Shown here one piece after another: positions 2,442-57,894 of a DNA stretch of 64,000 nt. Under the pieces are notes generated by a model that was not told the DNA's origin, searched no databases, and worked only from the letters and a program-made list of their open reading frames with translations. Where the stretch lies: contig JAJPJA010000100.1 in assembly GCA_021324455.1 (NCBI GenBank), forward strand, positions 12,068-76,067. Direction: 5' to 3'. Position 1 is the stretch's first letter, and every line of letters begins with the position of its first letter. The translations under genes and the position numbers were made by a program. The DNA comes from Pseudomonadota bacterium (lineage in GTDB: Bacteria; Desulfobacterota; Binatia; Binatales; Binataceae).

Positions 2442-2454
2442 ACCGGCAACCGAT

Positions 2455-4444: not shown

Positions 4445-4655
4445 ACGCGCCAATCGCCCGGCAAGTATCCAGGCCGGCGCGCCTGGCGTGTGCGATGGCG
4501 CCGCGGTTTGCGGCAATCGCTGACCGCTTTCAGAACGCAGCCTTCTTTCGGTCCGGATTACTGGCCGGCCCTTTCGGAACATTTGGTTCGACCCCATCCA
4601 GCGGCTAATCTGGGTCGCGCAAACCCCCGCGTTCGCGCTCAGGAGGACCTCGAAG

Positions 4656-5843: not shown

Positions 5844-6098
5844 GGCGAAAGGACCTGGCTTTGCTGACGGTGCGGCGTGTTGACAATCCTGCCCTGCCTC
5901 GCCGCGCGCACCGTTATGGGACAGGGCGGCTGCATCTTTGGCGCATCGGCGGTCAGTTGTGAAAGGGTGTTGCTGTAAGCGTATCAGGCACCCTCATCCT
6001 GACCCCTCTTTCACGAAAGAATGTGGGAGAGGCGAGCAGATGCGGGAGGGGGAGCGAAACGCTGCGGCTGAGGGAACCGAAAAATAACGGGGTGAGAC

Positions 6099-9113: not shown

Positions 9114-9117
9114 CGAA

Positions 9118-12100
9118 TCAGTTAGCGAGCTGACCTGCCGCCCGCCCCACCCGAGGCTCCACCTTTTCACACGCCGCCAACGCCTGCAAGACGGTGTCCA
9201 GTTCCTCGAACAACTCCTCGTAATTGCGGTTTTCGATTCGAACCGTCAGTTGCGCGTTGGGCGCCAGCCGCATCCGCGAGCGGTTGGCGTTGACCAGTTT
9301 GGTCAGCAGCGCCGGATCCATCGGCGCCTGCGGATGCACGCGGATTTGCAGGCTGTTGCCGCGCAGCACCGCGCTCATGAGCATCAACTCGCGCATCTGG
9401 CGCCGCACGTTCATCGCCGCCAACAAATTCTCAACCAGGGTGGGCACCGGACCGAAGCGGTCGCGCAGTTCGTCGCGCAAATCGTCGAAATCCTGCACCG
9501 ATTCCGCGCGCGCCATCCGCCGGTACAGGATCAGGCGCTCGCTTTCATCCGGCGCGTAGCTGTCGGGGATGTAGGCGGGGATGCCGAGCTGCAGCTCGGG
9601 CTCGAAGTCGGGCCGCTGCGGCTCGCCGCGCAGTTCGCGGATCGCCTGCTCCATCATCTCGGTGTACAGCTCGAAGCCGACCGCGGCGATATCGCCCGAC
9701 TGCTCGCGGCCGAGCAGGTTGCCTGCGCCGCGCAGCTCCAGGTCATGCATCGCGAGCTTGAAGCCGCCGCCGACCTCGACCAGCTCGCGCAGCACCTCGA
9801 TGCGCCGCTTGGCGTCGCGCGTGATCAGATGCTCGCCCGGCACCAGCAGATAGGCGTAGGCCTTTTGCCTGGAGCGTCCCACGCGGCCGCGCAACTGATA
9901 GAGCTGCGCCAGTCCGAAATGGTCCGCGCGATTGATGATAATCGTGTTGGCGTTGGGAATGTCCAGCCCCGACTCGATTATGGCCGAGCACACCAGCACG
10001 TTGACGCGCTTGCTGATGAAGTCGTGCATCACCACTTCCAGCTCGCGCTCCTCCATCTGCCCGTGCGCGATCGCGACCTTGGCCTCCGGCACCAGCGCGC
10101 GCAGATGACGCGCCATGTACTCGATGTTCTCGACCCGGTTATGCACAAAGAACACCTGGCCGTCGCGGTTGAGCTCGCGCAGGATCACCTCGCGGATGAG
10201 TCCGTCGTCGAAATGAGCGACGTAGGTATGAATCGCCTGGCGGTCCATCGGCGGGGTCTGGATGATCGAAAGATCGCGTATCCCGAGCATCGCCATGTGC
10301 AGCGTGCGCGGAATCGGCGTGCCGGTCATGGTCAGCACGTCGACCAGCTTGCGGAAGCGTTTGATCTTTTCCTTGTCGGCGACGCCGAAGCGATGCTCCT
10401 CGTCGATAATCAGCAGCCCCAGGCGCTTGAAATCGACGTCGTTCTGCAGCAGCCGATGGGTGCCGATGACGATATCGACCTTGCCCTCGCGCACCAGCTG
10501 CAGAATCGCCTTGTTGTCCCTGGGCGAACGGAAGCGCGAGACCATCTCGATCCGTACCGGGAAATCCTTGAAGCGCCCGGTAAAGTTCTCGAAATGCTGC
10601 TCGGCCAGAACCGTGGTCGGCACCAGCATCGCGACCTGGTACCCGTCGGCCACCGCGACCATCGCCGCGCGCAGCGCGACTTCGGTTTTGCCGAAGCCGG
10701 CGTCGCCGCAGATCAGCCGGTCCATCGGACGCGTCCTGGACATGTCGAGCAGCACCTGGTCGATGGCCGCCAACTGGTCCTCGGTCTCCTGGAATTCGAA
10801 GCGGTCGGCGAACTCTTCGTACATCGATCCGGGATGAGGAAAGGCGTGGCCTTCCTGCGCTTCGCGCGCCGCGTAGATTTCCAGCAGCTCCGACGCCATC
10901 GCCAGCACCGCCTCGCGCGCGCGTTTTTTGACCTTGTCCCACGAGCCGCTGCCGAGCTTGTCCAGCCTGGGCGTCACGCCGTCGCCGCCGACGTAGCGCT
11001 GAACCAGGTTGATGCGCTCCACCGGGACGTAGAGCGTGTCGTCGCCGAGGTATTCGAGATTGAGGAAATCGCCTTCGGCTTCGGCGACCTTCAGATGCTT
11101 GAGTCCGCGATAACGGCCGATGCCGTGGTCCAGATGCACCACGAAATCGCCCGGCTTGAGCTCCTCCAGGTTGACCAGCATCCCCTTGGCGGCGGGGCGG
11201 GTCCGCCGGCGCGTGCGCGGCTCGCCGAAGATGTCCTCTTCACTGTAGATGTACAGGCCGTCGAGCGGCAGCACGGTTCCGGCGCCCAGCTCGCCCTCCA
11301 GGATCGCGGGGTAGCCGGGCGGCGATTCCATCAGGCGGGGAAAGCTTTCCGCCTTGACGTTGATTTCGAAGCCGTAAGCCTCAAGATGGCGCCGCAGGCG
11401 ATTGCCCTGGCTGGGACCGTCGACCACGAAAATCGCGCGGCCCATCTGCCGGCGGATTTGCGTCAGCTCCTCGATCAGCGGTTCGAACGTCGGAGCTTTG
11501 GCGCCGTCCTTGCCGCCGGCGGTGAGCTTAAGGCTCGCCTGGGACTTGACTTCGATCGCAAGCGCGTGGCCGGTCTCCGGCGTGCGCAATGTCACCACCG
11601 AGCCGACCTCGACCGTAACCAGCTGCTCCAGGCGCGATTGCAGTTCGGCGGCGTCGAGGAACAGGCTTTCGGGAGGTGGAAAAAAGACGTGGCGCGCCAG
11701 ATTCTGCTCCGCCTCCTCGGCCACGTGATCGGCAAAGCGCTGGCTTTGCGCGAGGATGCGGCCGGGCTCGACCATCCATGTAAGCGCGTTTTGGGGCATG
11801 AAGTCGAAGATGGTCTGCAGCGGACAGTCGTACATGTAGGGCGTCAGGTTTTCGACCCCCGGAAAGAGCAAGCCGTTTTCCAGCGCTTCGGTCAGCTCGG
11901 CCACCTCCTTGCGCACCAGGCCGATCTCGGCCGCCCGCACCGCGACCTGATCGCGCAGCTTGCGATCGCGCAGCGCGCCCGGCGCCACGAACCGCGCCGG
12001 AATCACGATTGCTTCGAGCACTTCATCCAACGAGCGCTGGTCGGCCGGATCGAAGAAGCGAATCGAGGAGAGGATGTCGTCTTCCAGTTCAAGCCGCAGC

Positions 12101-46432: not shown

Positions 46433-46885
46433 TCAGGCGGAAGCGCGTTCGCCGTCATCCGCACCGGCCAACGCGCGGCGCGCCGCGGCCGGCGCGCGGC
46501 CGCCAAATGCCGTCAGCAGCACGAACATGGTGACGGCGCCGGCGCTGTCATAACCCAGATCGCGCAGGCTGCAGGTGCGTGCGGGAATAAAGTACTGATG
46601 CCCCTCGTCGGCCGCCGCGGCCAGCACGGATATGAGCAGCGCCAACCATGGCCGCAGCCCGACGATCCGGGCCAAAAGAAAGCACAAGACCAGATATTCC
46701 AAAAAGTGAGCGCTCCAGCGCACGATGGAAAGATCCCAGAACAGCTCGTTGGCGGTGCCGGCGTGGAGGAGCGATTGGAAATAGGGGTAGAACAGCGGCT
46801 CCATCCGCGCGGCCGAGAACAGCGCGGTGCCCAGCCAGTAGACCACCGCCATTAAAGCCGCGAGCAGAAAAAATCGCGCCGCCAT
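46433..46885 (-). CDS. VanZ-like family membrane protein
   Basis: ATG at 46885 (MAARFFLLAAL…); 4 TM; …ADEGHQYFIPARTCSLRDLGYDSAGA… VanZ signature. Stop abuts the LLM stop (tail-to-tail, 0-nt gap). Confidence 0.6.
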   Translation of the reverse strand: MAARFFLLAALMAVVYWLGTALFSAARMEPLFYPYFQSLLHAGTANELFWDLSIVRWSAHFLEYLVLCFLLARIVGLRPWLALLISVLAAAADEGHQYFIPARTCSLRDLGYDSAGAVTMFVLLTAFGGRAPAAARRALAGADDGERASA

Positions 46886-46962
46886 CCCGATTGGTTTCCG
46901 CCCGCATCCGGGAGATTCGGGAAGCTGTTCCACCAGCGCAACAATAGTCGATTTTAACTCAA

Positions 46963-46985
46963 AAAAATACCACCGGGTATTCGCT
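46963..46985 (-). terminator. Weak rho-independent terminator candidate downstream of the gmhB-like gene (AAUACC-cggu-GGUAUU + U7 on the minus-strand RNA)
   Basis: 6-bp AT-rich stem followed by 7 U; 126 nt after the gmhB-like stop. Confidence 0.3.
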
Positions 46986-47110
46986 TCTCCCGCTTCCCGA
47001 TTCACTGCCTTTCGGAGATGAGAAGTCGATTTTTTCCACTGGAAAAGCGCAGCGATGAGGCGGCCGTGCGGCAAAGCAGAAAGCGAACCGGACCCGCGCC
47101 AGTGGCGGCG

Positions 47111-47584
47111 TTAATGCCTGAAGAACTCGGCGGCATACACGAAACGCCCGACGCCCGCGGCCTTGGCGCATTGCTCGTCCACTGCCTGATCGCCCACCAT
47201 CGTCGAGTTGGCCAGATCGACGCCGTACGCCTGGGCCAACTCCGTGACCATTCCAGCCGCCGGCTTGCGGCATCCGCATCCGTCTTCCGGCCCATGGGGG
47301 CAGATTTCCCATGCGGTGAGGATTCCGCCCAGTTGCCGGTCGGTCTCCGCGATGGCCGCTTCGACCTGTTGGCGGGTGAAGCGTCCGCGTTTGATGCCGC
47401 GCTGATTGGTGACGATAAAAATCAGATGGTCGCGCAGCGGTCGCAGCGTGTCAGCGACGTTGGGCAGCAGCTTGATGCTGATATTGCCGCGGCTGTCGGC
47501 GGGCAGATCGCGATTTTCGTCCAGTTCGACCAGGGTTCCGCCGAGGTCACAGAACAGTCCGATATTTCCGGCATTGGGCGCCAT
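47111..47584 (-). CDS. HAD-IIIA phosphatase, D,D-heptose-1,7-bisphosphate phosphatase (GmhB)-like
   Basis: N-terminal DxGGT (…LFCDLGGTLVE…), …VTNQ…, C-terminal …MVGDQAVDEQCA…; Zn-binding CPHGPEDGCGCRKP loop typical of GmhB/HisB-N. Confidence 0.75.
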   Translation of the reverse strand: MAPNAGNIGLFCDLGGTLVELDENRDLPADSRGNISIKLLPNVADTLRPLRDHLIFIVTNQRGIKRGRFTRQQVEAAIAETDRQLGGILTAWEICPHGPEDGCGCRKPAAGMVTELAQAYGVDLANSTMVGDQAVDEQCAKAAGVGRFVYAAEFFRH

Positions 47585-47590
47585 GCAATC

Positions 47591-48952
47591 TCATCCCTCG
47601 CGCCAATTCAGATGGTCGCGCACGTGGGTGAAGACCTCTTCCAGGATGGCGGCGCCGGTTTCGGCCTGTTCCTGCGTGATTACCAGCGGCGGATTGATTC
47701 TGATGCGCGGAAAGTAGCCCATCATCAGCAGCCCGCGCCGGAGCGCCTGCTTGAAGATTTCCTCGGTCACGCGGCGGCTCAGCTCCTGTTTGGTGGCGCG
47801 ATCGCGCACCAAATCGATTCCGATCATCAGGCCGCGCCCGCGCACGTCGCCGACGAATTCGAATTTATGCTTCAGTTCCTGCAGACGGGCCAACAGCGAC
47901 GCGCCGACCTGACGCGCATTGTCCACCAGCTGTTCGTCCTTGATCGCGCGCAGGGTTTCGCCCACCGCCACCGCCGCCAGCGGGTTGCCGCCGTAGCTGG
48001 AGGACGACGCACTGGGCTTTGAGAACGGCTTGGCCTGCGCGACTTCCTCTCTCATGATTACGCCCGAGACGGGGAAGCCCGATCCCATCCCCTTGCCGAC
48101 GGTCATGATATCGGGGCGCACACCGGTGTGCTCGACGCCCCACATTTTTCCGGTGCGGCCGAAGCCGGTGATCATCTCGTCGGCGATCAGCACGGCATCG
48201 TTCTCGCGGGCGATTTGCGCGACTGCGGGCATAAATTCGTCGGGCGGGATCACGTTGCCGGCGGTGCCCTGAAACGGTTCCACCAGCACCGCGGCGACGG
48301 CGCCCGCCGACGCGTTTTTGATCTGCTTGCGCGCGAATTCGACGCAGAACAGACCGCATCCGGGGTACTCGAGCTTGAATGGGCAGCGGTAACAATCGGC
48401 GTACGGCACCAAATGCTGTCCGCCGGGCAGCGGGCCGTAGCCCTGCTTGGATTCGTCGCCGATAAGTCCGATCACGCCGCCGGTCTTGCCGTGGAAGCCG
48501 CCCCAGAAGCCGACCACTTCGTGTTTGCCGGTAAAGGAGCGGGCGGCGCGCAGGGCGGCCTCGACCGCCTCCGCCCCGCCGCTATAGAGATGAAACCGCT
48601 TAAGCGGCTCGGGTGCGGCCTCGGCCAGCGCCTGGAAGGACTGGGCGCGTTCGGGCGTCGCAAACGTCCCCACCATCAGGCGCGAAGCCTGTTCGGCCAG
48701 CGCCCGCGACATCCCGGGATGCCCGTGGCCGAGGCTGGCGACCGCCACTCCGGCAAAGAAATCCAGGTACACGTTGCCGTCGGCGTCGGTCAAAGTGGCG
48801 CCTTCGCCATGATCGAAAGCCACTCCGGCCAGCGAAGAAATCCGCTGCCGTCCGGGAGCCAAATGATGCTCTTCACGCTCGAATATCGCGCGCGATCGCG
48901 GTCCGGGAACCGGAGTCGTGATGGAAGGGAGTTTGCCTTTTTTATGTTTCAT
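47591..48952 (-). CDS. Class III pyridoxal-phosphate-dependent aminotransferase
   Basis: ATG at 48952 (MKHKKGKL…); …YLDFFAGVAVASLGHGHP…, …LIADEMITGFGRTGKMWG… with PLP Lys. Confidence 0.9.
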   Translation of the reverse strand: MKHKKGKLPSITTPVPGPRSRAIFEREEHHLAPGRQRISSLAGVAFDHGEGATLTDADGNVYLDFFAGVAVASLGHGHPGMSRALAEQASRLMVGTFATPERAQSFQALAEAAPEPLKRFHLYSGGAEAVEAALRAARSFTGKHEVVGFWGGFHGKTGGVIGLIGDESKQGYGPLPGGQHLVPYADCYRCPFKLEYPGCGLFCVEFARKQIKNASAGAVAAVLVEPFQGTAGNVIPPDEFMPAVAQIARENDAVLIADEMITGFGRTGKMWGVEHTGVRPDIMTVGKGMGSGFPVSGVIMREEVAQAKPFSKPSASSSSYGGNPLAAVAVGETLRAIKDEQLVDNARQVGASLLARLQELKHKFEFVGDVRGRGLMIGIDLVRDRATKQELSRRVTEEIFKQALRRGLLMMGYFPRIRINPPLVITQEQAETGAAILEEVFTHVRDHLNWREG

Positions 48953-49020
48953 CGTTGCGTTGAAAAAAACCTCGAACCGGCGTTGCCCCACGGCGCGCGG
49001 CGCGGGCCGCGGTCGTCGTC

Positions 49021-49845
49021 TTAATTCTCTTCCGGCGCCGGTCTTCTTTCCCGCATCAGGTGCAAGGCGCGGCGCGCGATCGCATCAGCCGCCTGCGCCC
49101 GGACGCGCTCGAAACTGGGCCAGTCGTTGAAATCAACTAACTTGAATTGTTGGCCGTTGACGATTGCGTCACCGCCCCAAACCTCCAGACCCAAAGCCAC
49201 CGCCGCGCTGTGGGCCGCTTCGTGGAGCCCCGCGGGAACACCAACGGCCGCATCGGCGACGCTGAAATAGCCGGTGCCGGTCACACCGTAGAACTTGATA
49301 ACACTACCCTCGACCGCAGCCTGAACATAGGCGAGCCTGACTCCGCGGGCGGCAAAACGCGCCAGCGCCTGCGCCAGCCCCGCCTCGTCGCCCACGCGCA
49401 GCACGTCATCGGCGCACAGCGCATGCAGGTCGCCGCGCTTGACGTACACTCCGCGCCGCGCATCGATCGCCCCCAGCCTGTCCCGATCCAATCCCTGCGC
49501 AGTGGCGACCAGCACACCTTGCGGCACCGGCGCCGCGCAAGCCTTCAGCGCGTCGCCCAGCCGGTCGCGATAACACGATCTGATGGCATGCGGCGAATTG
49601 ATTACCAGCGTCCCCGCCTGCTGCAGGGCGGCCAGCCGCGCCAACGCCGCCTCGCTCTGGCACATCGCCAGCACCAGATCGAAACCGCCGACTGTGCGGT
49701 GGAGCATTTGCGCGGCGGTAAGGGTGGATACGGCGGCGCCGGCGGTCTGCAGGCGCTTGAGGACGGCGTCGATGATGGCGGCGTCGGCGGCGCTCCTGCC
49801 GGGCGAGAACTCGCGTTCGCGATAAACGCCAAGCACCCGCAACAT
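49021..49845 (-). CDS. ATP-grasp fold ligase (Ddl/RimK-like), short form
   Basis: Pre-ATP-grasp N-terminus (…VYREREFSPGRSAADAAIIDAVLKRL…) and C-terminal …LEVWGGDAIV…LVDFNDWPSF…; family call tentative. Confidence 0.55.
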   Translation of the reverse strand: MLRVLGVYREREFSPGRSAADAAIIDAVLKRLQTAGAAVSTLTAAQMLHRTVGGFDLVLAMCQSEAALARLAALQQAGTLVINSPHAIRSCYRDRLGDALKACAAPVPQGVLVATAQGLDRDRLGAIDARRGVYVKRGDLHALCADDVLRVGDEAGLAQALARFAARGVRLAYVQAAVEGSVIKFYGVTGTGYFSVADAAVGVPAGLHEAAHSAAVALGLEVWGGDAIVNGQQFKLVDFNDWPSFERVRAQAADAIARRALHLMRERRPAPEEN

Positions 49846-50576
49846 CAGCGGCTCCCGCCGCGGCGCGATAAGGAAGTCGAAGCGCGCGCGATCAGGCGGC
49901 GCGCTGCCGTCAAATCCTCCGCGACGTCGATATCGATCGCTTCGCCCATATCAACGGCGTGCAGGGGCACGCCCCATTCCACCATCGCGCCCAAAAATTG
50001 CCGCAGCGCCGATAGACCCGCTTCGCGCGCCCGCGCCCTGAACCCGAAGATCGATTGGGGCAGGAAATAGACGCCCGCGGTGACGACGCAGCCGCTGCTC
50101 GCGCCGACTTTGCGGATCAAACCGGTTTGGTCGACTTCCACAAACAGGGGCCGCTCATCGCCGCGCCACCTGACGACGCCCAGGGCTCCCTCACCGCCGG
50201 GCAGCGTATCGGCGCGCCGCACCAAGCGGGTCATTTCCGCCGGCTCGACGATCGCGTCCACAGTCGCGGCCAAAAAACGGCCGCTGTCGATATGTCGGCC
50301 GAATTCGAACAGGGTCTCCATGGAATTGGGCGTATCCCGCACCACGACGCTGAGGCGAGCGGGAAGCGCAACCCCATCGCTCCTGATGATCGCGGCGGTC
50401 TCGGAGTTGACCACGGCGAGGACGCGCCGGGCGCCGGCCTGCAGCAGGATGCGCGCCTGGCGCGCCAGCAGCGTCTCGCTGTCGAGCATCACCAGCGGCT
50501 TGGGCAGATCGGGACCGTGCGCTCGCAGCCGCTCGCCGCGCCCCGCCGCCAGTATCGCTGCGTCAAATGGATCCAA
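49845..50576 (-). CDS. Sugar-phosphate/alcohol-phosphate nucleotidyltransferase (NTP_transferase, MobA/GlmU-N-like)
   Basis: AILAAGRGERLRAHGPDLPKPL = canonical (L)xxGxGxR(L)…K NTP-transferase signature; stop overlaps the ATP-grasp ATG (TGATG). Confidence 0.75.
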   Translation of the reverse strand: MDPFDAAILAAGRGERLRAHGPDLPKPLVMLDSETLLARQARILLQAGARRVLAVVNSETAAIIRSDGVALPARLSVVVRDTPNSMETLFEFGRHIDSGRFLAATVDAIVEPAEMTRLVRRADTLPGGEGALGVVRWRGDERPLFVEVDQTGLIRKVGASSGCVVTAGVYFLPQSIFGFRARAREAGLSALRQFLGAMVEWGVPLHAVDMGEAIDIDVAEDLTAARRLIARASTSLSRRGGSR

Positions 50577-51297
50577 GGCAGAACTCGACCACTTCCTGCA
50601 GAGTATGCGCCGTCAAATCCGCCTCCTGCGCGCGGCAATCAGTGTACCGCAGGGTGGCCGGCGTCAACCATATCGTCGTCAGTCCCAATTGGCGCGCCGG
50701 CGCACAGTCCTTGCCCAGAGAGTCTCCGATCATCATGGTCTCTTCAGGCCGCGCCCCAAGCATCGCCAGCGCCGCGCGGTAGATTGCCGGATCGGGCTTG
50801 AACGCACCGACGCGCGCGGAATCCGCCACCGCGCCGATCAACGGGAGCAGGCCGGTTTCATTCAGGACCGTTTCCAGGTTGCCGTAAAAATTGGATACCA
50901 CCCCGATTTTGAAATGAGGGGCCAAAGCGGCCAGCGCGGCGCGGCTTTGTTCGCAGCCCGCGGCGGTTTCGAGGCAAAACCGCTGCGCGAGGGTCGGGGC
51001 GCGGGTGCGGATGGATTCCGGCACCCGTCCCGGCATCCGCAGCAACAGGTAGTCGATTTGCCAGCTGACTAATTCGTCCACAAGCTGGCGCAGGCCGAAA
51101 CCGTAAATCCGTTCCCCCGCCTGGTAGCCGCGCCGGGTGGCGTCGGTAAAGGCGAGGTCGAGTTCGTCGCGGGTCAGGGTGACGCCGAGATCGCGGTAAT
51201 GACGCAGGAAGCGGTCGAGCCAATGCGCTCCGGGCAGATCGAGGGTGCCGCCGAAATCGAACAACAGGTTGCGGATATGTTTGCGCCGGGTTTCCAC
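50563..51297 (-). CDS. HAD superfamily hydrolase (phosphatase)
   Basis: Motif I …LLFDFGGTL…, motif III/IV …FKPDPAIY…, …MMIGDSLGKD…; 14-nt overlap with the downstream nucleotidyltransferase. Confidence 0.75.
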   Translation of the reverse strand: METRRKHIRNLLFDFGGTLDLPGAHWLDRFLRHYRDLGVTLTRDELDLAFTDATRRGYQAGERIYGFGLRQLVDELVSWQIDYLLLRMPGRVPESIRTRAPTLAQRFCLETAAGCEQSRAALAALAPHFKIGVVSNFYGNLETVLNETGLLPLIGAVADSARVGAFKPDPAIYRAALAMLGARPEETMMIGDSLGKDCAPARQLGLTTIWLTPATLRYTDCRAQEADLTAHTLQEVVEFCLGSI

Positions 51298-51559
51298 CGT
51301 GTTGCGGCAATACTATGGCCGATCAAAAGAAACGAGCCTAGAATGTTTTGGGTTAGAGGAAAGGGCCGCCGGTCTCAACTTTAAAACCGCTTTCTGTGCG
51401 CCATGACAGACCCGCGCACAACCACTCTGGCGCGCCTACTATGACCGCCGTCGTGCTTGAAAACCCCAGCTTCTTCCAAGGAATTTCCGACCTGTCTTGC
51501 CTTGCCTGACCGATTGGTCTAGTACATTGACCTTGAACTGACCGGAAAGTCAAAGTTAA

Positions 51560-52780
51560 TTGAACCCCACTTCCACCACTCAAGAGGTCCCCGTCGTGGC
51601 GCTGGTAAACGCACCCAGCCGCGGCACGGAATTGATTTTCGGCCGTCCGTTGCTCGAGCGGATGATTCGGGTCTGCGAGCGGGCCGGCGTTTCCCGGTTT
51701 TTCGTCAAATGTCCGGCGCAGGAACGGGAGCGGTTCGGCAACGCGCTGGGCCGTTTTTCCAGGGACCCGCGAATCCGCCTGGTCAGCTCGTTCGATGAAG
51801 TCAAAGACGCTGCCGATTTGGCCGACGCCAGTCCCTGCGTGGCGCTTAACGGCAATATCGTTTTCTCGCTCAATCAGCTCCGCGACCTGATGCAGTGGCA
51901 TGCGATAAACTCGACTGAAATCGTACGCCTGGCCAGCGCCAACGGCGACCCCGACGCCTCGGTCGCGGTGGGCAGGCTGTCCGACTTTACCGGCAATGGT
52001 AGCGGCGCAGTCGCCAGTGTGGTCAGTGAAATCGCCGGGATGCCGTTCGCGCTGGACGGACATCCGGAGGACCGCGACGCGGCGGAAAGAGTAATCGCCC
52101 GCACCCTGCGCCATGATACCGCCCACACCGACGGCTTCATGGCCCGCATCTTCGATCGCAAGCTTTCCTGGCGGCTCAGCTACCTGCTGGCGCATACGCC
52201 GGTAATGCCCAACCAGGTCACGATTGCCAACACCGCGATGGGGATGGCGATCGCGTGGATGTTCGCGCAGCCCGGCTACTGGATTCGGCTGATTGCCGCG
52301 GCTCTGTTCGTGGTCTCGATTACGATCGACGGCGTGGACGGAGAGTTGGCGCGGCTCAAGATGGCCGAAACGGCGGCGGGCGCGCGGCTGGACGCGCTGA
52401 CTGACAACCTGGTTCATATTGCGATTTTTCTCGGTATCAGTATCGGATGTTATCGCGCCGCGCATAGCGCGGCCTACCTCTATGTGCTGGGCGCACTGCT
52501 GGCTGGTTTCGGCCTGTGCGCCATCTCGGTGCATCGCGCGATGAGCGTTTCGAGCAGCGGGGCGGAAGCTTTTGTGCGCCAGGTGGATCGGCTTACGGGG
52601 CGCGATTTCGCTTATCTGGTTCTGCTTTTGGCGGCGGTAAATCGGCTCAATTATTTTATCGTCGGCGCAGCGGTCGGCACCTACATCTTCGCCGCCACCT
52701 TATGGTGGGCGACCAGCAGATGGACCCGCTCCGACGCGGCGCCTGGAAACGGTGGGGATCGGCTTGCGGAGGGCTTATGA
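51560..52780 (+). CDS. Fusion protein: N-terminal cytoplasmic domain (degenerate nucleotidyltransferase-like) + C-terminal CDP-alcohol phosphatidyltransferase
   Basis: CDP-OH motif DG-x2-AR-x8-G-x3-D-x3-D = DGVDGELARLKMAETAAGARLDALTD; 6 TM in C-half. N-half has VVALVNAPSRGTELIFGRPL in place of the LAAGxGxRL motif. Start TTG 51560 or, better SD-supported, GTG 51596. Confidence 0.8.
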   Translation: MNPTSTTQEVPVVALVNAPSRGTELIFGRPLLERMIRVCERAGVSRFFVKCPAQERERFGNALGRFSRDPRIRLVSSFDEVKDAADLADASPCVALNGNIVFSLNQLRDLMQWHAINSTEIVRLASANGDPDASVAVGRLSDFTGNGSGAVASVVSEIAGMPFALDGHPEDRDAAERVIARTLRHDTAHTDGFMARIFDRKLSWRLSYLLAHTPVMPNQVTIANTAMGMAIAWMFAQPGYWIRLIAAALFVVSITIDGVDGELARLKMAETAAGARLDALTDNLVHIAIFLGISIGCYRAAHSAAYLYVLGALLAGFGLCAISVHRAMSVSSSGAEAFVRQVDRLTGRDFAYLVLLLAAVNRLNYFIVGAAVGTYIFAATLWWATSRWTRSDAAPGNGGDRLAEGL

Positions 52781-54102
52781 AGAAACCCAGAATCCTGCTC
52801 ATTCAACCAACCACGGTTCATCTCGACGGCACCCCACATAAGACCCGCTGGCGTCTGATCATGGGCCTGATGATTCCGTTGGTGGCCGGGCTGACGCCCG
52901 ATGACTTCGACGTCACCCTATGCGACGAGCGCCTTGAGGACGTCGATTTTGACGCCGGATGGGACCTGGTCGGGATGACCACGACCATTGGCGCGTCGCT
53001 GCGCGCCTACCAACTCGGCGACGAGTTCCGCAAACGCGGAGTGCCGGTGGTATTCGGCGGCTTTCATGCCACCCTGCAGACCGAAGAAGCGCTCAAGCAT
53101 TGCGACGCTGTTATCCAGGGCGAGGCCGACCTCGTGTGGGAACCGCTGCTGCGCGACTGGCAGGACGGCAAACTCAAACAGGTGTACAAGGCCGACAAGC
53201 TGCACGACCTCAAAGGATTGCCGCGCCCGCGCCACGAGCTGCTCAAACTCAACCGCTACCTGTTCAAGGCGGCGCCCATCCAGGCCAGCCGCGGATGCCC
53301 CTACCGGTGCTCGTTCTGTGAAATCCCGGTGTTTTACGATGGCGCTTATCGCACCCGTCCGATCGGCGATATCGTCGAAGAAATCAAGCAGGTGGTGAAA
53401 ATCACCGGCATCCGCCGCTTTCAGTTCATTGACGACCAGATCACGGGCAAGCACAAGTTCGCGCGCGAACTCTTCCGCGCTCTGGAGCCGCTCAACATCC
53501 GCTTCTCCTGCCTGTGGACCATCAACTCCAATCACGACGACGAATTGCTGGAGCTGGCGGCCAAGGCCGGCATCTTCCACGTCAACATCGGGGTGGAGTC
53601 GATCAGCCAGGACAGCCTGCTGTCGATGAACAAGATCCAGAACCACGCCAACCAGTACAAGAAGCTGCTGGAGAAGATGCGCAAGTATGGCATCTACTAT
53701 TCGCTGAATTTCCTGTTCGGACTGGAGAACGACCATCCGCGGATCTTCGACGACACCCTCAAGTTCCTGCACGAAGTCAAGGCGCCCGAGGCGTTCTTCA
53801 ACACCGTCACGCCGCGCAAGGGCACTCCGATGCGCACGCAGTTGGAGGACGAAGGGCGCGTCATCATCCCCGACGCCGACATGTACACCAACAACTTCCG
53901 CTGCATGTTCGTGCCCAAGAACCTCTCGCCCCAGGAAGTCGAAGAGGGGGTGTGGCGCTGCACCACGGAGTTTTACTCGCTCAAGTCGATGTTCAAGCGG
54001 CTGCTGATGCCGCCGGGGCCGTTCACCTGGCAGGGCATCACCGAGAATATGCTCTTCTACTTTGGCGCCAAACGCCGCATCGACCCGGTGGATTACTATT
54101 GA
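52777..54102 (+). CDS. B12-binding-domain radical SAM protein (class B)
   Basis: N-terminal cobalamin-binding Rossmann-like region then CPYRCSFC (CxxxCxxC) radical-SAM cluster motif; ATG overlaps upstream stop (ATGA). Confidence 0.85.
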   Translation: MKKPRILLIQPTTVHLDGTPHKTRWRLIMGLMIPLVAGLTPDDFDVTLCDERLEDVDFDAGWDLVGMTTTIGASLRAYQLGDEFRKRGVPVVFGGFHATLQTEEALKHCDAVIQGEADLVWEPLLRDWQDGKLKQVYKADKLHDLKGLPRPRHELLKLNRYLFKAAPIQASRGCPYRCSFCEIPVFYDGAYRTRPIGDIVEEIKQVVKITGIRRFQFIDDQITGKHKFARELFRALEPLNIRFSCLWTINSNHDDELLELAAKAGIFHVNIGVESISQDSLLSMNKIQNHANQYKKLLEKMRKYGIYYSLNFLFGLENDHPRIFDDTLKFLHEVKAPEAFFNTVTPRKGTPMRTQLEDEGRVIIPDADMYTNNFRCMFVPKNLSPQEVEEGVWRCTTEFYSLKSMFKRLLMPPGPFTWQGITENMLFYFGAKRRIDPVDYY

Positions 54103-54256
54103 TTGCGCGGCTATAAGTTGCGCAGATATATATTAAGGGTCGGCAGTGGATCGGCTCCGACCCTCACGCGCGGGTCGGCCACGGAATTCGCGCGGACGCC
54201 GGTTGCGCCACAGGGGGAATCGGCCCTTTCCGATCTGCCCTGCCGATACGGTTTCG

Positions 54257-54934
54257 ATGCAGATGTTGGGCGGCATTGACAAAATCCTCGGTTTGGCGGC
54301 TGCCCTCCTGCTTTTCTCCGCCTGCGCAGTTGCTCCCGCACCTATGAAGCCCCAGCACCGGGCGGTGCCTACTCCAATCGATGGTCAGGTCTCGGTCGTC
54401 ACCGAGGCCGAGAAACCGGTGGGCGGATTGATTCCGGTTTATGTCGCGATCGCCAACGGCAGCGACGAGGGCAGGGCGATACATCCCAGCCAGGTCTTCG
54501 CGCTCAATCAGAACGGCGAGCGGATCGCGCCGGTGCCGCCGATCGAAGCGGCGCGCGAGGCGGGCGGCGCCAACAAGCTCAAGGCCGCGGTCGAAAGCGG
54601 CGCGCTCGGCGGCGCGGCGGAAGGCGCGGTCGGTGCGGGCGCCGGCGCTCTTGCCGGTCTGGTCAGCGGCGGCGTCGGTCCGGGCGCCGCGATTGGCGCT
54701 GCCGTCGGCGCCGCGCAGGGTGCGTTATGGAGCGCTCCGCTGGGCCAGGGCGAAGCGGAGAACCAGGCCAACGCCCAGATTCAGGGACTGGCGCTGAACG
54801 ATACCGAAGTGCGCAAGGACTTCACCGTCAGCGGCTACGTCTTCTTCCCCGCCGGTTCCTACACCGATCTGGAAATGCTGGTGGTTAACACCGAGACCGG
54901 CGCCACGGAGACGGTGAAGGTGCCGTGGCGCTAG
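54257..54934 (+). CDS. Lipoprotein with glycine-zipper (GxxxG repeats) segment
   Basis: Lipobox LLFSAC; …GALGGAAEGAVGAGAGALAGLVSGGVGPGAAIGAAVGAAQGAL… glycine zipper. Confidence 0.6.
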   Translation: MQMLGGIDKILGLAAALLLFSACAVAPAPMKPQHRAVPTPIDGQVSVVTEAEKPVGGLIPVYVAIANGSDEGRAIHPSQVFALNQNGERIAPVPPIEAAREAGGANKLKAAVESGALGGAAEGAVGAGAGALAGLVSGGVGPGAAIGAAVGAAQGALWSAPLGQGEAENQANAQIQGLALNDTEVRKDFTVSGYVFFPAGSYTDLEMLVVNTETGATETVKVPWR

Positions 54935-54938: not shown

Positions 54939-56615
54939 CTATCTCCATTGCCGCTGGTAATCGGGACCGCGCGAATCGGGCGGATTTGTCGGTGCCAGGA
55001 TCTGCACCGGCAGCGAGATCGGCAGGTCGGCGCCGATAATAATCGCCTCGCCCTCGCCCAGACCCGGAATAAACGCCATCGCCGAGCGATCCGCGTCGCT
55101 TGACGCGCTCTCCACCGCCACCCGGTCCATATGGTTGTTGAGCCGGTGAATGATGAACGTTCCGATCTGGCTGAGGATGCCTTCGGGAATATCGCGCGGC
55201 CGCTGTGTGGCGAGACAGAAATTCAGCGACAGCTTGCGCCCCTCTTTGGCGATCAATTCGAATGAGTCGAGCGCGTAGCGCGCATGATCCTCTTCCAGGG
55301 TCTGGTTGAGGAAATGATGCGCCTCGTCCAGCATCAGCACCAGCGGCCGTTTGCCGATCTTGCCGTGGCGCGCCAGATCCAGCGTGTAGCGCCCGATGGC
55401 GTTGGCGACAATCTCGCGCGCGTCGTGCGAAAAGGGCAGATGCTTGAGCGAGATCCGCATCACCCGCGCCTGGGGGTCGGCCAGGAAGGAGTCGATTCGA
55501 TCGAACACCGGCGTGGTCTTGCCCGGCTGAAAGACACAGGCCAGTTCGGGCGCATGCAGCATGTCCTCGATGCGGGTAATCAGATTGACGCAGTTGCTGC
55601 GCTCGACTTCGTTGGGTGCGCCCCAGCGCGACGCGTCGGGACTGGAAGCGAACCCGCCGGTCGGGAAGACGCATTCGGCGTCGATTTGCGCGGGCAGCTT
55701 GGTAATGTCGAAATTGGCGTGCGGATCTTCGACGTCCCGCGCCCGCGCCGCATACGCCGTCTCGAACGGAAATTTTAACTTGCCCGCCTTCATCACCACC
55801 CCGCCGGTGGCCAGATGCGGCACCCGCGCCAGCTTCAGGCTCTTGATGGCCGATCTCAGCTTGGGCCCCTGGGTCGGTCCGGTCGGCTTGAACAACGCGA
55901 ACAGGTCGGCTTCGGTGAGCGCAAAAAACGGCAGCACCACCTCTTCGGACTGCTCCTGTCCGCTCTGATCGACGCCGATATGCACGTGATGGACACCCGA
56001 GCGCAAGGTGTGAAATTCGCCGGTGCTGTCGAACAGAATCATCTTGGCCGAAAACCGCGACGATTCCTCGATCAGCTTGGCCAGTGTCCAGCTTTTGCCC
56101 ACCCCGGTCGCGCCGACCACCGCGCAATGCCGTCCGAAGGCGCGCTCCGGCGACAGTCCGACCTCGGTGCCGTCGCGCAGTTGCATCAGGTTGAGCATCA
56201 CCGGTTCGAACTCGCCTTCAGGGGTTTTGCGCACCTGACCGCATTCGAACAGCCAGCGTAGAAGTTGCGGCGGCGCCGCATACACGCCGCTGCCCAGACG
56301 CGGGTATTGGTTGATTCCGCGCAAAGCGTTCTCGCCGTCGGCGCCGATTGTGGTCAGGAGTTCGGCGGCGGCGGTCGCCGGCAACCCGGATTCCGGAGCT
56401 GAAGACCCGTTCGGGCCCTGGCGCGCGGACTGCACGCTGGTCAGACGTCCGAACAGAACCGACTGGCCGCACTCGATTACCACGAATCTGCCGACCTCTA
56501 CCGCTTGCGCGTCGGATCGCGACAAAATCACCCTGGCGGAATTGGGCAGGATTTCGAAGACCGTACCCAGGCGGCGACTGGAATCGAACGGATTGAGCGG
56601 CGGATTTCTCTTCAC
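54939..56615 (-). CDS. HerA-type (FtsK/HerA superfamily) hexameric ATPase with N-terminal HAS-barrel
   Basis: Walker A VVGATGVGKSWTLAKL, Walker B/DEAH-like LVLMLDEAHHF, C-terminal …LATQRPRDIPEGILSQIGTFIIHRL…; GTG start at 56615. Confidence 0.8.
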   Translation of the reverse strand: MKRNPPLNPFDSSRRLGTVFEILPNSARVILSRSDAQAVEVGRFVVIECGQSVLFGRLTSVQSARQGPNGSSAPESGLPATAAAELLTTIGADGENALRGINQYPRLGSGVYAAPPQLLRWLFECGQVRKTPEGEFEPVMLNLMQLRDGTEVGLSPERAFGRHCAVVGATGVGKSWTLAKLIEESSRFSAKMILFDSTGEFHTLRSGVHHVHIGVDQSGQEQSEEVVLPFFALTEADLFALFKPTGPTQGPKLRSAIKSLKLARVPHLATGGVVMKAGKLKFPFETAYAARARDVEDPHANFDITKLPAQIDAECVFPTGGFASSPDASRWGAPNEVERSNCVNLITRIEDMLHAPELACVFQPGKTTPVFDRIDSFLADPQARVMRISLKHLPFSHDAREIVANAIGRYTLDLARHGKIGKRPLVLMLDEAHHFLNQTLEEDHARYALDSFELIAKEGRKLSLNFCLATQRPRDIPEGILSQIGTFIIHRLNNHMDRVAVESASSDADRSAMAFIPGLGEGEAIIIGADLPISLPVQILAPTNPPDSRGPDYQRQWR

Positions 56616-56921: not shown

Positions 56922-57767
56922 TCAGGCGAAGCGGGAGATCAGCTCGCGCGCGCAGGCGCGAATGAAATCCAGCACGCCGGATTGATCGCGGGCGCGGGTG
57001 TAGAGCACGATCCGATGCACGCCGAGGTCAGCGTATTGACGCACCACCTCGGCGTCGACCGGCGCTTTGGGCGTGACGCTGATTTCCAACTCGCTGAATC
57101 GCCGGCCGTGCCGTTCGCATGCCTGCCTGATCGCGTCGATGTAATTGGCGGTGCGATCGCGATCCAACCCGAAGCCGAACCATCCGTCGCCCAGCCGTGC
57201 GGTGCGGCTGAACGCATATTTTGAATTGCCGCCGAAAACGATCGGCGGATGCGGCTGCTGGAGCGGACGCGGCTCGGCGCGCACGCCGCTGAAGGACACG
57301 AACCGGCCGTGAAACTCAGGCCGGTCCATGGTCCACAGCGCCTTCATCGCACCGACGTATTCTTCGGCGCGAAGGCCTTTGTTTTCGAACGGCACCCCGA
57401 GGCTGGCGTATTCCAGCGGCAGCGATCCGATTCCGAAGCCGCAGATCAGGCGGCCGCCCGAAACCACATCGACCGACGCCAACTCCTTGGCCAGAACAAC
57501 CGGATTGCGCTGCGGCAAAATGATGATACCGGTGGCGAGCTTGATCCTCCGTGTATGTCCCGCGGCGTACGCCAGCGCGACCGCGGAATCGACGAACGGG
57601 ACGTCAGGCGGCATCGGCGAGGGCGGGGTCTGCGGATCGGCCAGCACGATATGCTCGCCGGTCCACAGGCTGTCGAAACCGGCCTGGTCGGCGGCGCGCG
57701 CCACCGCCGCCGCCGCGGCCGGGTTATCGCACGGTCGCATATTGATTCCGAACAGGCCGAACTTCAT
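56922..57767 (-). CDS. LLM class F420-dependent oxidoreductase
   Basis: ATG at 57767 (MKFGLFGIN…); …AGFDSLWTGEH…, …LICGFGIGS… LLM signatures. Confidence 0.8.
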   Translation of the reverse strand: MKFGLFGINMRPCDNPAAAAAVARAADQAGFDSLWTGEHIVLADPQTPPSPMPPDVPFVDSAVALAYAAGHTRRIKLATGIIILPQRNPVVLAKELASVDVVSGGRLICGFGIGSLPLEYASLGVPFENKGLRAEEYVGAMKALWTMDRPEFHGRFVSFSGVRAEPRPLQQPHPPIVFGGNSKYAFSRTARLGDGWFGFGLDRDRTANYIDAIRQACERHGRRFSELEISVTPKAPVDAEVVRQYADLGVHRIVLYTRARDQSGVLDFIRACARELISRFA

Positions 57768-57894
57768 GAGTTGCCAGATAACACGAATCCGCCCGGCCTC
57801 GAAAGCGCTGTCTAAAAAATCAACGGTTGCGGTTTGATCGTGCGATCGAACCGTATCCATAATTGCGCAGAGCCCAGGGCGGAGGAATCAGCAG

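Follow-up and report, generated by a model that had tools for sequence, protein, structure and literature searches.

A conserved seven-gene cluster of the Binataceae may encode a CDP-polyol head-group pathway related to a putative inositol-lipid cluster of Bacteroidota

Seven genes in the analysed 64-kb stretch of DNA (hereafter the window) were shown to form a conserved unit in the Binataceae. Our best reading, held with moderate confidence and taken as a whole, is that they make up two divergent operons for a Kennedy-type CDP-polyol pathway supplying the head group of a membrane lipid, the CDP-polyol probably being CDP-inositol and the head group probably an unusual amino-inositol-phosphate. 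The cluster is not an orphan and links to a putative inositol-lipid cluster of Bacteroidota.

All seven open reading frames, their overlaps and the lower-GC divergent spacer were confirmed at the coordinates proposed in an earlier sequence-only reading, and every domain call made there proved correct. The minus-strand arm begins with a HAD-IA protein (REG-2-like, 50563..51297), followed by an NTP-transferase of the NTP_transf_3 type (49845..50576; motif AILAAGRGERL...KPL; PF12804, 41.3 against a cut-off of 27), a 274-aa ATP-grasp protein (49021..49845), a class-III (omega-type) PLP aminotransferase (47591..48991; PF00202, 328 bits; true start probably ATG 48952) and, as the last gene, a HAD-IIIA protein of the GmhB/HisB-N type (47111..47584). 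The plus-strand arm consists of a fusion of an N-terminal domain to a PF01066 CDP-alcohol phosphotransferase (CDP-AP; 51560..52780) and a B12-binding-type radical SAM protein (rSAM; 52777..54102; CPYRCSFC; PF04055, 73 bits). The HAD-IA and NTP-transferase genes overlap by 14 nt, the NTP-transferase and ATP-grasp genes meet in TGATG with an overlap of 1 nt, and the fusion stop overlaps the rSAM start in ATGA.

The divergent intergenic region (51298..51595) measures 262 bp to TTG 51560 and 298 bp to GTG 51596; the latter is the probable start of the fusion, and an identical database protein (394 aa) begins there. The divergent promoter region of about 260 bp proposed earlier was recovered in length and composition (GC 0.515 at 51298-51559 versus 0.634 for the cluster), but a search of the region for a sigma-70-like promoter or consensus found none. 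No Rfam family matched the spacer, which is 167-300 bp long in most orthologous loci. Terminator-like hairpins were present 3' of both distal stops (54103-54125 on the plus strand, 47097-47083 on the minus strand), the number of such sites being not above that in shuffles.

Among species-level Binataceae genomes with sufficient flank, all seven genes occurred in the same layout at 55 of 60 species-representative loci, and the flanking genes varied. This co-localisation is far above chance, and the neighbourhood comparison found the orthologues together rather than scattered, in keeping with the cluster as first proposed. All Binataceae genomes are MAGs, and the membrane lipid is a predicted product. 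Binataceae are uncultured soil bacteria.

The fusion protein joins a degenerate cytidylyltransferase-like domain (approximately residues 1-190) to a six-helix CDP-alcohol phosphotransferase of the AF2299/DIPPS type, whose catalytic motif, earlier judged genuine, is complete (D257GxxD260GxxAR...G274xxxD278xxxD282). Profile comparison with the PDB gave AF2299 (3.5e-24), IPCT-DIPPS (2e-13) and PIP synthases (about 1e-7), while the structure model (pLDDT 80) yielded full-length Foldseek matches to AF2299 and 4MND, with TarI, IspD and KdsB as fold matches of the N-terminal domain. The description of this domain as nucleotidyltransferase-like and motif-degenerate was upheld by its modelled cytidylyltransferase fold and by the full-length matches of the whole protein to AF2299 and IPCT-DIPPS; its relatives are not ordinary PgsA/PssA enzymes. 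AF2299 of Archaeoglobus fulgidus (PDB 4O6M/4O6N/4Q7C), the best match by both profile and full-length fold, has the same two-domain architecture, but it is archaeal and shares about 20% identity with the fusion; it binds CDP-glycerol (PMC4634129).

The best named families of the fusion were IPCT/DIPPS, archaetidylinositol-phosphate synthase and PIP synthase, all of which use inositol-1-phosphate. In IPCT/DIPPS a cytidylyltransferase fold is likewise fused to a CDP-AP domain; here, however, the fused N-terminal domain lacks the GxGxR...K signature, and a gene of its own encodes the active cytidylyltransferase, the NTP-transferase, which keeps that signature intact and gives a weak full-length match to the IPCT domain (1.6e-8). 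With the IPCT/DIPPS model (cut-off 580) the scores were 72 and 34 bits, and the ATP-grasp protein, aminotransferase and rSAM are without counterpart in DIP synthesis. The PIP-synthase route (BT_1523 PIPS, BT_1525 PIP phosphatase and BT_1526 MIPS in Bacteroides thetaiotaomicron; also mycobacteria) has a CDP-AP family enzyme in an inositol-phosphate context and an HpnL/BT_1521-like neighbour, as do relatives of the cluster. Its donor is CDP-diacylglycerol and, unlike the cluster, it needs no dedicated cytidylyltransferase; the fusion reached 42 bits (cut-off 170) and 16 bits (cut-off 350) with PIP synthase models.

The NTP-transferase, as a cytidylyltransferase-type enzyme, presumably makes the CDP-polyol donor. 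Its best solved relative is heptose-1-phosphate guanylyltransferase (E 1e-4), which, like the GmhB/HisB-N type of the HAD-IIIA protein, would fit a GDP-heptose-type nucleotide-sugar route (kinase, GmhB phosphatase, HddC-like nucleotidyltransferase) that supplies a glycan or capsule and whose amino sugar comes from the aminotransferase. We consider such a route very improbable: the cluster lacks an isomerase, a glycosyltransferase and a polymerase; what a CDP-alcohol phosphotransferase moves is a phospho-alcohol and not a glycosyl group; scores with the GmhB and HddC equivalog models were far below the cut-offs; and the HAD-IIIA protein, which lacks the Asp+2 residue, occurs only in the Binataceae cluster version and at none of 51 non-Binataceae loci.

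The HAD-IA, NTP-transferase, ATP-grasp and CDP-AP enzymes constitute a module found across many phyla, of which the ATP-grasp protein is a universal member. This protein belongs to a family without a name and had no HMM support in Pfam or NCBIfam; the fold of its structure model supplied the assignment, and the earlier guess of an ATP-grasp enzyme proved right. A profile search with it retrieved 1283 representatives (409 at E <= 1e-30), including a grasp+CDP-AP fusion. NTP+grasp fusions occur in Planctomycetota and Thermoanaerobaculia, and a HAD+NTP+grasp triple fusion (P0442) in Elusimicrobiota; the link within the module is proven by these natural fusions.

By sequence comparison, the module was shown to be homologous to a cluster of Phocaeicola vulgatus/Prevotella located beside the gene for MIPS, the myo-inositol-1-phosphate synthase. 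The HAD-IA protein (29% identity, E 4e-26), the NTP-transferase (29%, 5e-27) and the intervening ATP-grasp protein (30% over the full length, 2e-47) all have homologues there, the D-x-G-G-T HAD motif is common to both, a CDP-alcohol phosphotransferase is also present, and the proposed logic, in which a CDP-polyol is made and then transferred, is shared. The claim that the set matches no known pathway was therefore too strong, although its general logic of CTP activation followed by phospho-alcohol transfer stands. The P. vulgatus locus, identified by exact protein look-up (L169), has the order NTP, grasp, CDP-AP, HpnL-like, HAD, MFS, MIPS, which is the layout of the putative alternative inositol-lipid cluster of Heaver 2022 (BVU_RS13095 NTP-transferase, RS13105 CDP-alcohol phosphatidyltransferase, RS13115 HAD; PMC9246714). 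In the text of that paper the term ATP-grasp occurs 0 times, so this gene goes unmentioned; the paper reports that inositol phosphoceramide is made in P. vulgatus and P. veroralis by a way other than the PIP-synthase route (PMC9246714). In gut Bacteroides/Prevotella the four-enzyme core lies next to the gene for inositol synthase. The earlier reading set an inositol route aside for want of inositol-1-P synthase, yet MIPS neighbours the module at 18 of 51 non-Binataceae loci.

Several points weigh against the head-group reading. The Bacteroidota reference cluster is itself putative, and the CDP-AP of the fusion, with its extra N-terminal cytidylyltransferase-like domain, resembles the P. vulgatus enzyme in the catalytic core only (27% identity). 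The window lacks the adjacent MIPS and HpnL-like genes; no MIPS, HpnL-like or Mla gene was found within 10 kb of the cluster at any Binataceae locus, nor anywhere in the 64-kb window. Compared with the Bacteroidota version, the window adds the class-III aminotransferase, the GmhB-type HAD and the B12-type rSAM.

A soluble phosphodiester osmolyte, similar to di-myo-inositol phosphate or diglycerol phosphate, was weighed as an alternative product. An AF2299/DIPPS-like enzyme would join a CDP-polyol to a second polyol phosphate, a HAD protein would dephosphorylate the product, and amination would give a zwitterionic solute. This fits the enzymes that rank first among the solved and among the named relatives of the fusion, AF2299 and IPCT/DIPPS, six-helix enzymes that act on soluble substrates and acceptors only and process no lipids (PMC4634129). 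It also fits the cluster's possession of a cytidylyltransferase for soluble substrates and of two HAD proteins, and the lack of HpnL-like and Mla genes at Binataceae loci. We nevertheless regard it as unlikely, since in class B clusters the same CTD+CDP-AP type (31-45% identity) has an HpnL-like membrane protein directly 3' of it, MlaEFD genes are interspersed in homologous modules or OEP/MMPL lie 3' of them, the Asp+2 that a phosphatase should have is missing from both HAD proteins, and there is a correlation of the Bacteroidota version with inositol lipids (PMC9246714). The sequence-only reading had left the choice between lipid head group and compatible solute open; the head group is favoured because MlaEFD, an HpnL-like flippase-type protein, MMPL and OEP lie inside or beside related clusters. 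In one single same-strand operon (L149), the order is NTP, MlaE, MlaF, MlaD, grasp, aminotransferase, CDP-AP, GFO dehydrogenase, HpnL-like, HAD, MIPS.

The HAD-IIIA protein passes TIGR01662 (66.9 > 44.6) and TIGR01656 (85.8 > 84.15) and carries a C-x-H...C-x-C zinc loop. Its motif I (CDLGGTL) keeps the nucleophile Asp, but the Asp+2 position is replaced, being G/A/V/C/T in 82/82 homologues. Motif I of the HAD-IA protein is FDFGGTL, so that Asp+2 is Gly, and D-x-G-G-T was found in 138/138 homologues from all three cluster classes. Because this general acid/base residue is replaced in every homologue, phosphatase roles of both proteins are uncertain, and the simple dephosphorylation assumed earlier is not safe.

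In the head-group pathway that we favour, the NTP-transferase would activate a polyol phosphate with CTP, most likely myo-inositol phosphate with MIPS encoded elsewhere, or alternatively glycerol phosphate. The membrane CDP-alcohol phosphotransferase would then transfer the phospho-polyol from CMP to an alcohol that serves as acceptor and is probably a lipid. The ATP-grasp and HAD-IA proteins may prepare the correct polyol phosphate; this could be done, for instance, by an ITPK-like kinase combined with a phosphoryl-transfer/phosphatase step that would shift the phosphate from D-3 to D-1, by analogy with the kinase/GmhB/nucleotidyltransferase of GDP-heptose synthesis. A kinase role is advanced as a hypothesis: in fold searches, inositol-phosphate kinases came out level with ligases (RimK, LysX, Ddl), and the only sequence-level PDB matches, ITPK1/ITPK4, were not significant (E 0.2-0.6).

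The class-III aminotransferase would convert a ring carbonyl to an amine, so that the head group would be of the inosamine type, with the carbonyl provided by an IolG-like (GFO) dehydrogenase. In aminocyclitol pathways, scyllo-inosamine is formed by a GFO/IDH/MocA myo-inositol 2-dehydrogenase and an aminotransferase, and the combination of dehydrogenase, aminotransferase and MIPS is matched at two loci (L149 and L131). Known inosose aminotransferases, however, belong to the DegT/StsC family, whereas the enzyme here is class III with a predicted role, and among solved structures it is closest to archaeal ornithine/GABA-type aminotransferases and fold-type-I racemases. Orthologues (46-62% identity) occur in non-Binataceae cluster versions, usually adjacent to a GFO/IDH/MocA dehydrogenase, among them the one in the L149 MIPS operon (48%, E 8e-113). 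The dehydrogenase lies inside the operon in relatives and 3' of the arm in about half of Binataceae, but is absent from this window; the dehydrogenase-aminotransferase pair is seen in class B clusters and half of Binataceae loci. The best named family of the GFO proteins was inositol 2-dehydrogenase, with a score below threshold.

The acceptor could instead be a hopanoid, a phospho-(amino)cyclitol being placed on bacteriohopanetetrol, or an HpnO-type aminotransferase acting on ribosylhopane. A phosphorylated composite hopanoid would result, and rSAM would be a hopanoid-associated tailoring enzyme. Class-III aminotransferase, B12-type rSAM and HpnL-like families are indeed common to hopanoid side-chain genes (HpnH/HpnJ/HpnK/HpnL/HpnO) and cluster versions, and true hopanoid genes neighbour the latter in two Binatia lineages. 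HpnH (379 bits > 225) lies within 10 kb at 29 Binataceae-type loci, in the order HpnH, TetR, GFO, LLM, cluster. In other Binatia (L126, L137, L145), the order is HAD, NTP, grasp, aminotransferase, GFO, CTD+CDP-AP, HpnL-like, with true HpnK (334 > 233) and, in L137, true HpnJ (708 > 578). Against this, the window contains no hopanoid gene, about half of Binataceae loci lack a nearby HpnH, HpnH and the arm have a TetR gene between them, lineage synteny could account for the adjacency, and the module is present too in Bacteroidota, a group not known to produce hopanoids. We know of no phosphate-linked hopanoid and no hopanoid pathway with a CDP-alcohol phosphotransferase, and judge this acceptor improbable. 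Members of the rSAM family do lie between MlaA/MlaC and MMPL genes (L092 and L174), a triad proposed as the hopanoid transport proteins HpnS/HpnM/HpnN (2025-26 preprint).

The B12-binding domain of rSAM scored 29.0, slightly below the Pfam cut-off of 32.1. BchE, HpnJ, HpnR and PhpK were rejected as identities, all scores being far below the cut-offs (HpnJ, 83 bits against 578; HpnR, 54 against 650). Within the head-group pathway, rSAM and the Binataceae-specific GmhB-type HAD would serve in lineage-specific tailoring; the C-methylation suggested earlier is one option only. rSAM is part of a much wider family. A tentative alternative, less probable than a role in the pathway, is that rSAM is a widespread, independent (lipid-modifying) enzyme merely located 3' of the CDP-AP gene in Binataceae, and the functional cluster would therefore comprise six genes. 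In Geotalea, Desulfobacca, Elusimicrobia, a further Binatia lineage and elsewhere, homologues at 52-73% identity are for the most part found without the module, and clusters of classes A and B have no rSAM. No other gene of the cluster evolves as slowly: its median identity is 88%, versus 47-72% for its neighbours and 48% for the fusion. On the other side stand the ATGA overlap, the adjacency of rSAM to the cluster at 75 of 80 Binataceae loci although the flanks change, and a second, independent association, in which a homologue of 43% identity is divergent from MIPS-HAD-NTP-grasp (L166).

The seven genes of the cluster (47111-54102) were recovered by ORF listing where the sequence-only reading had placed them, and six of the seven were confirmed by Pfam and NCBIfam. 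On the minus strand these were a HAD-IIIA protein (47111-47584), a class-III aminotransferase (47591-48991), an NTP_transf_3 nucleotidyltransferase (49845-50576) and a HAD-IA protein (50563-51297). The plus strand carried a fusion protein with CDP-OH_P_transf in its C-terminal half (51560-52780) and a Radical_SAM protein whose B12-binding domain was just sub-threshold (52777-54102). The remaining gene, on the minus strand, encodes an ATP-grasp protein. The 14-nt, TGATG and ATGA gene overlaps agreed with the earlier description, as did the lower GC content of the divergent spacer (0.515 vs. 0.634 in the cluster). In the identical database protein, the fusion starts at a GTG at 51596.

Searching the protein collection with the fusion protein turned up 541 relatives; those carrying a name were Candidatus Binataceae. 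A scan at one genome per species yielded 156 relatives, the best 80 of which were essentially all from Binataceae MAGs. Conservation of the neighborhood of fusion orthologues, the check proposed with the original reading, was pronounced: all seven genes in one divergent layout were present in 55 of the 60 loci with enough flank, and the flanking genes varied from locus to locus. At the distance where the fusion was 48% identical, median identities were 88% for the radical SAM protein, 72% for the aminotransferase, 63% for HAD-IIIA, 50% for the ATP-grasp protein, 49% for the NTP-transferase and 47% for HAD-IA.

At 3-9 kb downstream of the radical SAM gene, panC, panB, a PDZ protein gene, a metallo-beta-lactamase gene and coaX were syntenic in roughly 44 of 80 loci from Binataceae (including L015, L020, L043, L060 and L072). 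The pantothenate genes panB, panC and coaX were rejected as cluster partners and judged lineage synteny, because they were absent from the window and from the other cluster classes.

An exact protein look-up assigned two related loci, L169 and L155, to Phocaeicola vulgatus and a Prevotella, respectively. The P. vulgatus genes (BVU_RS13095, NTP-transferase; RS13105, CDP-alcohol phosphotransferase; RS13115, HAD; the ATP-grasp gene is presumably BVU_RS13100, judging from the tag numbers) belong to the "putative alternative inositol lipid cluster" of Heaver et al., proposed as the source of inositol phosphoceramide in species without the PIP-synthase route, with functions explicitly unconfirmed (PMC9246714). 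Homology to the window proteins extended over the full length for the ATP-grasp protein (2e-47, 30% identity), was also seen for the NTP-transferase (5e-27) and HAD (4e-26), and covered only the catalytic core for the CDP-alcohol phosphotransferase (5e-10). The window encodes homologues of the NTP-transferase, the HAD hydrolase and the CDP-alcohol phosphotransferase together. The P. vulgatus-type cluster adjoins a gene for MIPS, the myo-inositol-1-phosphate synthase, whereas the window cluster has no such neighbor.

The cluster is real, strongly conserved, and a new, expanded version of a known but unverified bacterial head-group pathway. The enzyme logic of the sequence-only reading (CTP activation of an alcohol phosphate and transfer to an acceptor alcohol) largely held, but its claim that the set matched no known pathway was too strong, given the homology to the P. 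vulgatus/Prevotella cluster. In the literature searched, nothing beyond PMC4634129 and PMC9246714 turned up on this gene combination, on the function of AF2299 or on whether the alternative inositol pathway had since been tested. An orphan cluster of globally abundant, uncultured soil Binataceae is hereby linked to genes of gut bacteria, the sole candidate set for inositol sphingolipid synthesis in Prevotella and P. vulgatus. The ATP-grasp protein represents an overlooked, universally conserved fifth member of that set, and the HAD lacking Asp+2 is atypical; since P. vulgatus is genetically tractable, both are directly testable there.

When the ATP-grasp family profile was run against 1.84 billion representatives, 1283 matches were obtained, 409 of them at E ≤ 1e-30. 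Natural fusions were observed between NTP-transferase and ATP-grasp (six representatives), among HAD, NTP-transferase and ATP-grasp (P0442, 802 aa), and between ATP-grasp and CDP-alcohol phosphotransferase (P0476, 700 aa), in MAGs of Planctomycetota, Thermoanaerobaculia and Elusimicrobiota. Because such fusions occur among HAD-IA, NTP-transferase, ATP-grasp and CDP-alcohol phosphotransferase, these four proteins work together; they are referred to below as the module.

Scanning metagenomes with an alignment of 56 members yielded 80 loci and three architectures, the ORFs of high-GC loci being chosen with GC3 filtering. Class C (Binataceae) had the complete set of seven. Class B (high GC) contained, in this order, HAD, NTP-transferase, ATP-grasp, aminotransferase, a GFO/IDH/MocA dehydrogenase, the fusion with its cytidylyltransferase-like N-domain, and an HpnL-like membrane protein; identities to the window proteins were 46-62% for the aminotransferase and 31-45% for the fusion, and one cluster member was annotated as Candidatus Binatia. 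Class A (low GC) contained NTP-transferase, ATP-grasp, a CDP-alcohol phosphotransferase without N-domain, an HpnL-like protein, HAD, in some cases an MFS gene, and MIPS. In two class B loci, L126 (2685-5826, minus strand) and L145 (3766-8446, minus strand), a GlpD-like glycerol-3-phosphate dehydrogenase and an FAD-linked oxidase were encoded divergently, with an additional FGGY kinase in L145. This pairing hints at glycerol or DHAP chemistry, possibly toward ether lipids.

MIPS was adjacent in 18 of the 51 non-Binataceae loci, and none was found in the 64-kb window or in 109 Binataceae-type loci. Three loci bridged these architectures. L149 (GC 0.35) carries, in one tight operon, NTP-transferase, MlaE, MlaF, MlaD, ATP-grasp, an aminotransferase 48% identical to that of the window (8e-113), CDP-alcohol phosphotransferase, GFO dehydrogenase, an HpnL-like protein, HAD and MIPS. 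L131 combines MIPS, GFO dehydrogenase, ATP-grasp, CDP-alcohol phosphotransferase, HAD, NTP-transferase and aminotransferase. In L166 (GC 0.62), a radical SAM homologue (43% identity to that of the window) is divergent from MIPS, HAD, NTP-transferase, ATP-grasp and genes of HpnL-like, OEP and MMPL type. Through these loci, an inositol-phosphate context is established for the aminotransferase, the dehydrogenase and the radical SAM family, and the module is connected with genes of lipid trafficking.

The GFO dehydrogenases scored best against inositol 2-dehydrogenase, below its cut-off. In about half of the Binataceae species, a GFO dehydrogenase and an F420-type LLM oxidoreductase follow HAD-IIIA on the same strand; this dehydrogenase was absent from the window. 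The recurring arrangement of MIPS, IolG-like dehydrogenase, aminotransferase, CDP-alcohol phosphotransferase and Mla/HpnL-like genes predicts amino-inositol phospholipids. In place of phosphatidylinositol, these would offer a cationic or zwitterionic lipid, with a bearing on envelope charge and environmental lipid biomarkers.

The fusion protein carries a complete class I CDP-alcohol phosphotransferase signature (D1xxD2GxxAR...GxxxD3xxxD4 on transmembrane helices 2-3), namely D257-G-V-D260-G-E-L-A-R265...G274-A-R-L-D278-A-L-T-D282, with all signature residues invariant in 20 homologues and a PF01066 score of 46.3 (cut-off 22). Its AlphaFold model (pLDDT 80) comprised one juxtamembrane helix and six long helices at residues 200-391, a predicted six-helix membrane core of the kind typical of soluble-acceptor enzymes. 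Foldseek matched the model over its full length to AF2299, 4MND and PIP synthases. By fold, the N-domain resembled the cytidylyltransferases TarI, IspD and KdsB, with APSRGxE in place of GxGxR...K; the signature is retained in the separate NTP-transferase gene.

A profile of the 20 homologues matched AF2299 (3.5e-24), IPCT-DIPPS (2e-13) and PIP synthases (~1e-7) among solved structures, and PgsA/PssA only marginally. The fusion is thus a two-domain enzyme of the AF2299 type, with a signature-less cytidylyltransferase-like domain joined to the core. It was rejected as IPCT/DIPPS of DIP synthesis (NF041135), with 72.3 bits against a cut-off of 580 and only residues 155-365 aligned; IPCT/DIPPS combines an active IPCT domain with the phosphotransferase in one protein, in contrast to the degenerate N-domain here. 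A DIP/DGP-like solute is a possible product. The Binataceae loci contain no HpnL-like or Mla genes, and the substrates of the nearest enzymes with solved structures are soluble: AF2299 and DIPPS both bear a cytidylyltransferase-type domain, neither processes lipids, and AF2299 binds CDP-glycerol (PMC4634129).

Both HAD proteins retain the nucleophile Asp in motif I (FDFGGTL in HAD-IA, CDLGGTL in HAD-IIIA) together with motifs II-IV, and neither has the DxD of HAD phosphatases, in which Asp+2 is the general acid/base. Asp+2 was missing in 138 of 138 HAD-IA and 82 of 82 HAD-IIIA homologues, replaced by Gly (or Ala, Val, Cys, Thr). Such a loss is unusual for HAD phosphatases and, judged from sequence, points to a phospho-enzyme of long lifetime or to chemistry of the transferase kind; its presence in every homologue, with the other motifs kept, would argue against a plain phosphatase role. 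HAD-IIIA exceeded its subfamily cut-offs (TIGR01662, 66.9 vs. 44.6; TIGR01656, 85.8 vs. 84.15) and has the zinc-binding C-x-H...C-x-C loop (CPHGPEDGCGC), which places it in the GmhB/HisB-N subfamily; it was rejected as a GmhB equivalog (87.6 vs. 178). Membership in the DIP-synthesis and GDP-heptose routes was rejected on curated scores. Phosphonate and teichoic-acid routes were also rejected, as genes for a PEP mutase, a TagF-type enzyme or a glycosyltransferase were absent from the scanned ORFs (the seven cluster genes, their immediate flanks and ten larger ORFs).

The ATP-grasp protein has the three-domain fold, with conserved Lys residues and an acidic/Asn Mg-binding triad. Sequence comparison with the PDB gave only inositol-phosphate kinases (ITPK1/PPIP5K type), weakly at E 0.17-0.6, and fold scores were equal for inositol-phosphate kinases and ligases. 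The hypothesis that it is a kinase draws on two points, these weak ITPK matches and the class A clusters without carboxylate or amine logic.

In the proposed pathway, the NTP-transferase would activate a polyol phosphate with CTP, the CDP-alcohol phosphotransferase would transfer the phospho-polyol, the dehydrogenase/aminotransferase pair would carry out amination, and the product would be a membrane lipid. MIPS produces D-inositol-3-phosphate. Phosphorylation at position 1 by the ATP-grasp protein and phosphoryl removal at position 3 by HAD could yield the 1-phosphate for a canonical 1-linked head group, which would explain the fusion of HAD, NTP-transferase and ATP-grasp. GDP-heptose synthesis proceeds in the order kinase, GmhB, nucleotidyltransferase, which the proposed ATP-grasp, HAD and NTP-transferase order parallels.

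The genes around related clusters suggested a hopanoid as the acceptor of this head group. HpnH was near the cluster in 29 related loci of Binataceae type, and in class B, true HpnK lay behind the HpnL-like gene in L126 (11843-13801), L137 (6435-9862) and L145 (14608-16469), joined by true HpnJ in L137, all from another Binatia lineage. However, the window itself showed no hopanoid gene, as no shc or hpn neighbors were found in it. In many Binataceae, a block of HpnH (true adenosyl-hopene transferase), TetR, GFO/IDH/MocA and F420-type LLM genes recurred upstream of HAD-IIIA, at a distance of roughly 1-6 kb (L008, L009, L016, L034, L039, L068, L072, L076 and L077 among them); the window lacks this block. 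A single ORF of L145 apparently combines the HpnL-like part with the YdjC/HpnK part.

A wider proposal, which we consider rather unlikely, would make the module a general bacterial machine by which any lipid alcohol could be given a phospho-cyclitol. The acceptor in Binatia would be bacteriohopanetetrol, a hopanoid, or a different lipid not based on glycerol, and the group added would be an aminated, radical SAM-modified inositol phosphate. The ATP-grasp protein would then be an inositol-phosphate kinase of prokaryotes, and the HAD without Asp+2 would be a phosphoryl-transfer partner. If true, this would represent a phospho-inosamine lipid class so far undescribed.

Outside the cluster, the region is flanked by a pair of F420-dependent LLM oxidoreductases from family TIGR03619 (45542-46432, plus strand; 56922-57860, minus strand). 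With 33-40% identity to the LLM behind the cluster in other Binataceae, both are its paralogues rather than its orthologues. A VanZ-family gene is located upstream (46433-47074, minus strand), and a glycine-zipper lipoprotein-like gene (54146-54934, plus strand) and a HerA/DUF87 ATPase gene (54939-56615, minus strand) downstream; synteny of the latter two is limited to the nearest relatives (L005-L011).

An Rfam scan of the whole window returned no family, and thus no riboswitch in the spacer; a sigma-70 promoter scan found none, and terminator-like sites did not exceed shuffles in number. Among the spacers of 75 loci, shared 10-mers were confined to one sub-lineage, with none in the window. 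An imperfect palindrome, TGACCTTGAACTGACCGGAAAGTCA, just upstream of the fusion gene (51500-51560) may be an operator; the distant loci that were compared do not share it.

The radical SAM protein contains CPYRCSFC (PF04055, 73 vs. 29.5), and its B12-binding domain (PF02310) scored 29.0 against 32.1, a cut-off reached by homologues. Across Binataceae (L007-L121) it was 85-99% identical, compared to 45-77% for neighboring genes, reflecting very strong constraint. Its best solved relative was AprD4 (4e-12). Assignments as BchE (106 vs. 481), HpnJ (83 vs. 578), HpnR (54 vs. 650) and PhpK (92 vs. 600) were rejected, the last together with PhpK-type P-methylation.

Homologues were found at 73% identity in another Binatia lineage and at 52-57% in Geotalea uraniireducens, Desulfobacca, Nitrospirota and Elusimicrobia. 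The enzyme may act independently of the pathway; most members of the wider family stand alone. The exceptions were L092, a metagenome contig with the gene after MMPL, MlaC and MlaA (5298-11302), and L174, a Nitrospirota MAG with the gene between MlaEFD-MlaC-MlaA and MlaC-MMPL (512-8826). The hopanoid transport proteins HpnM, HpnS and HpnN are, according to a proposal in a recent preprint, proteins of the MlaC, MlaA and MMPL types, respectively. Two unassigned families gain context from the cluster, HpnL and this highly conserved B12-type radical SAM family, which extends from Geobacter relatives to Nitrospirota.

The top NCBIfam match of the window protein was the same sub-threshold BchE model. 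A "bchE" gene is listed as ubiquitous in Binatota, in which the bacteriochlorophyll pathway is otherwise incomplete (Murphy et al. 2021, PMC8262859), and the radical SAM gene described here may be the source of those calls.
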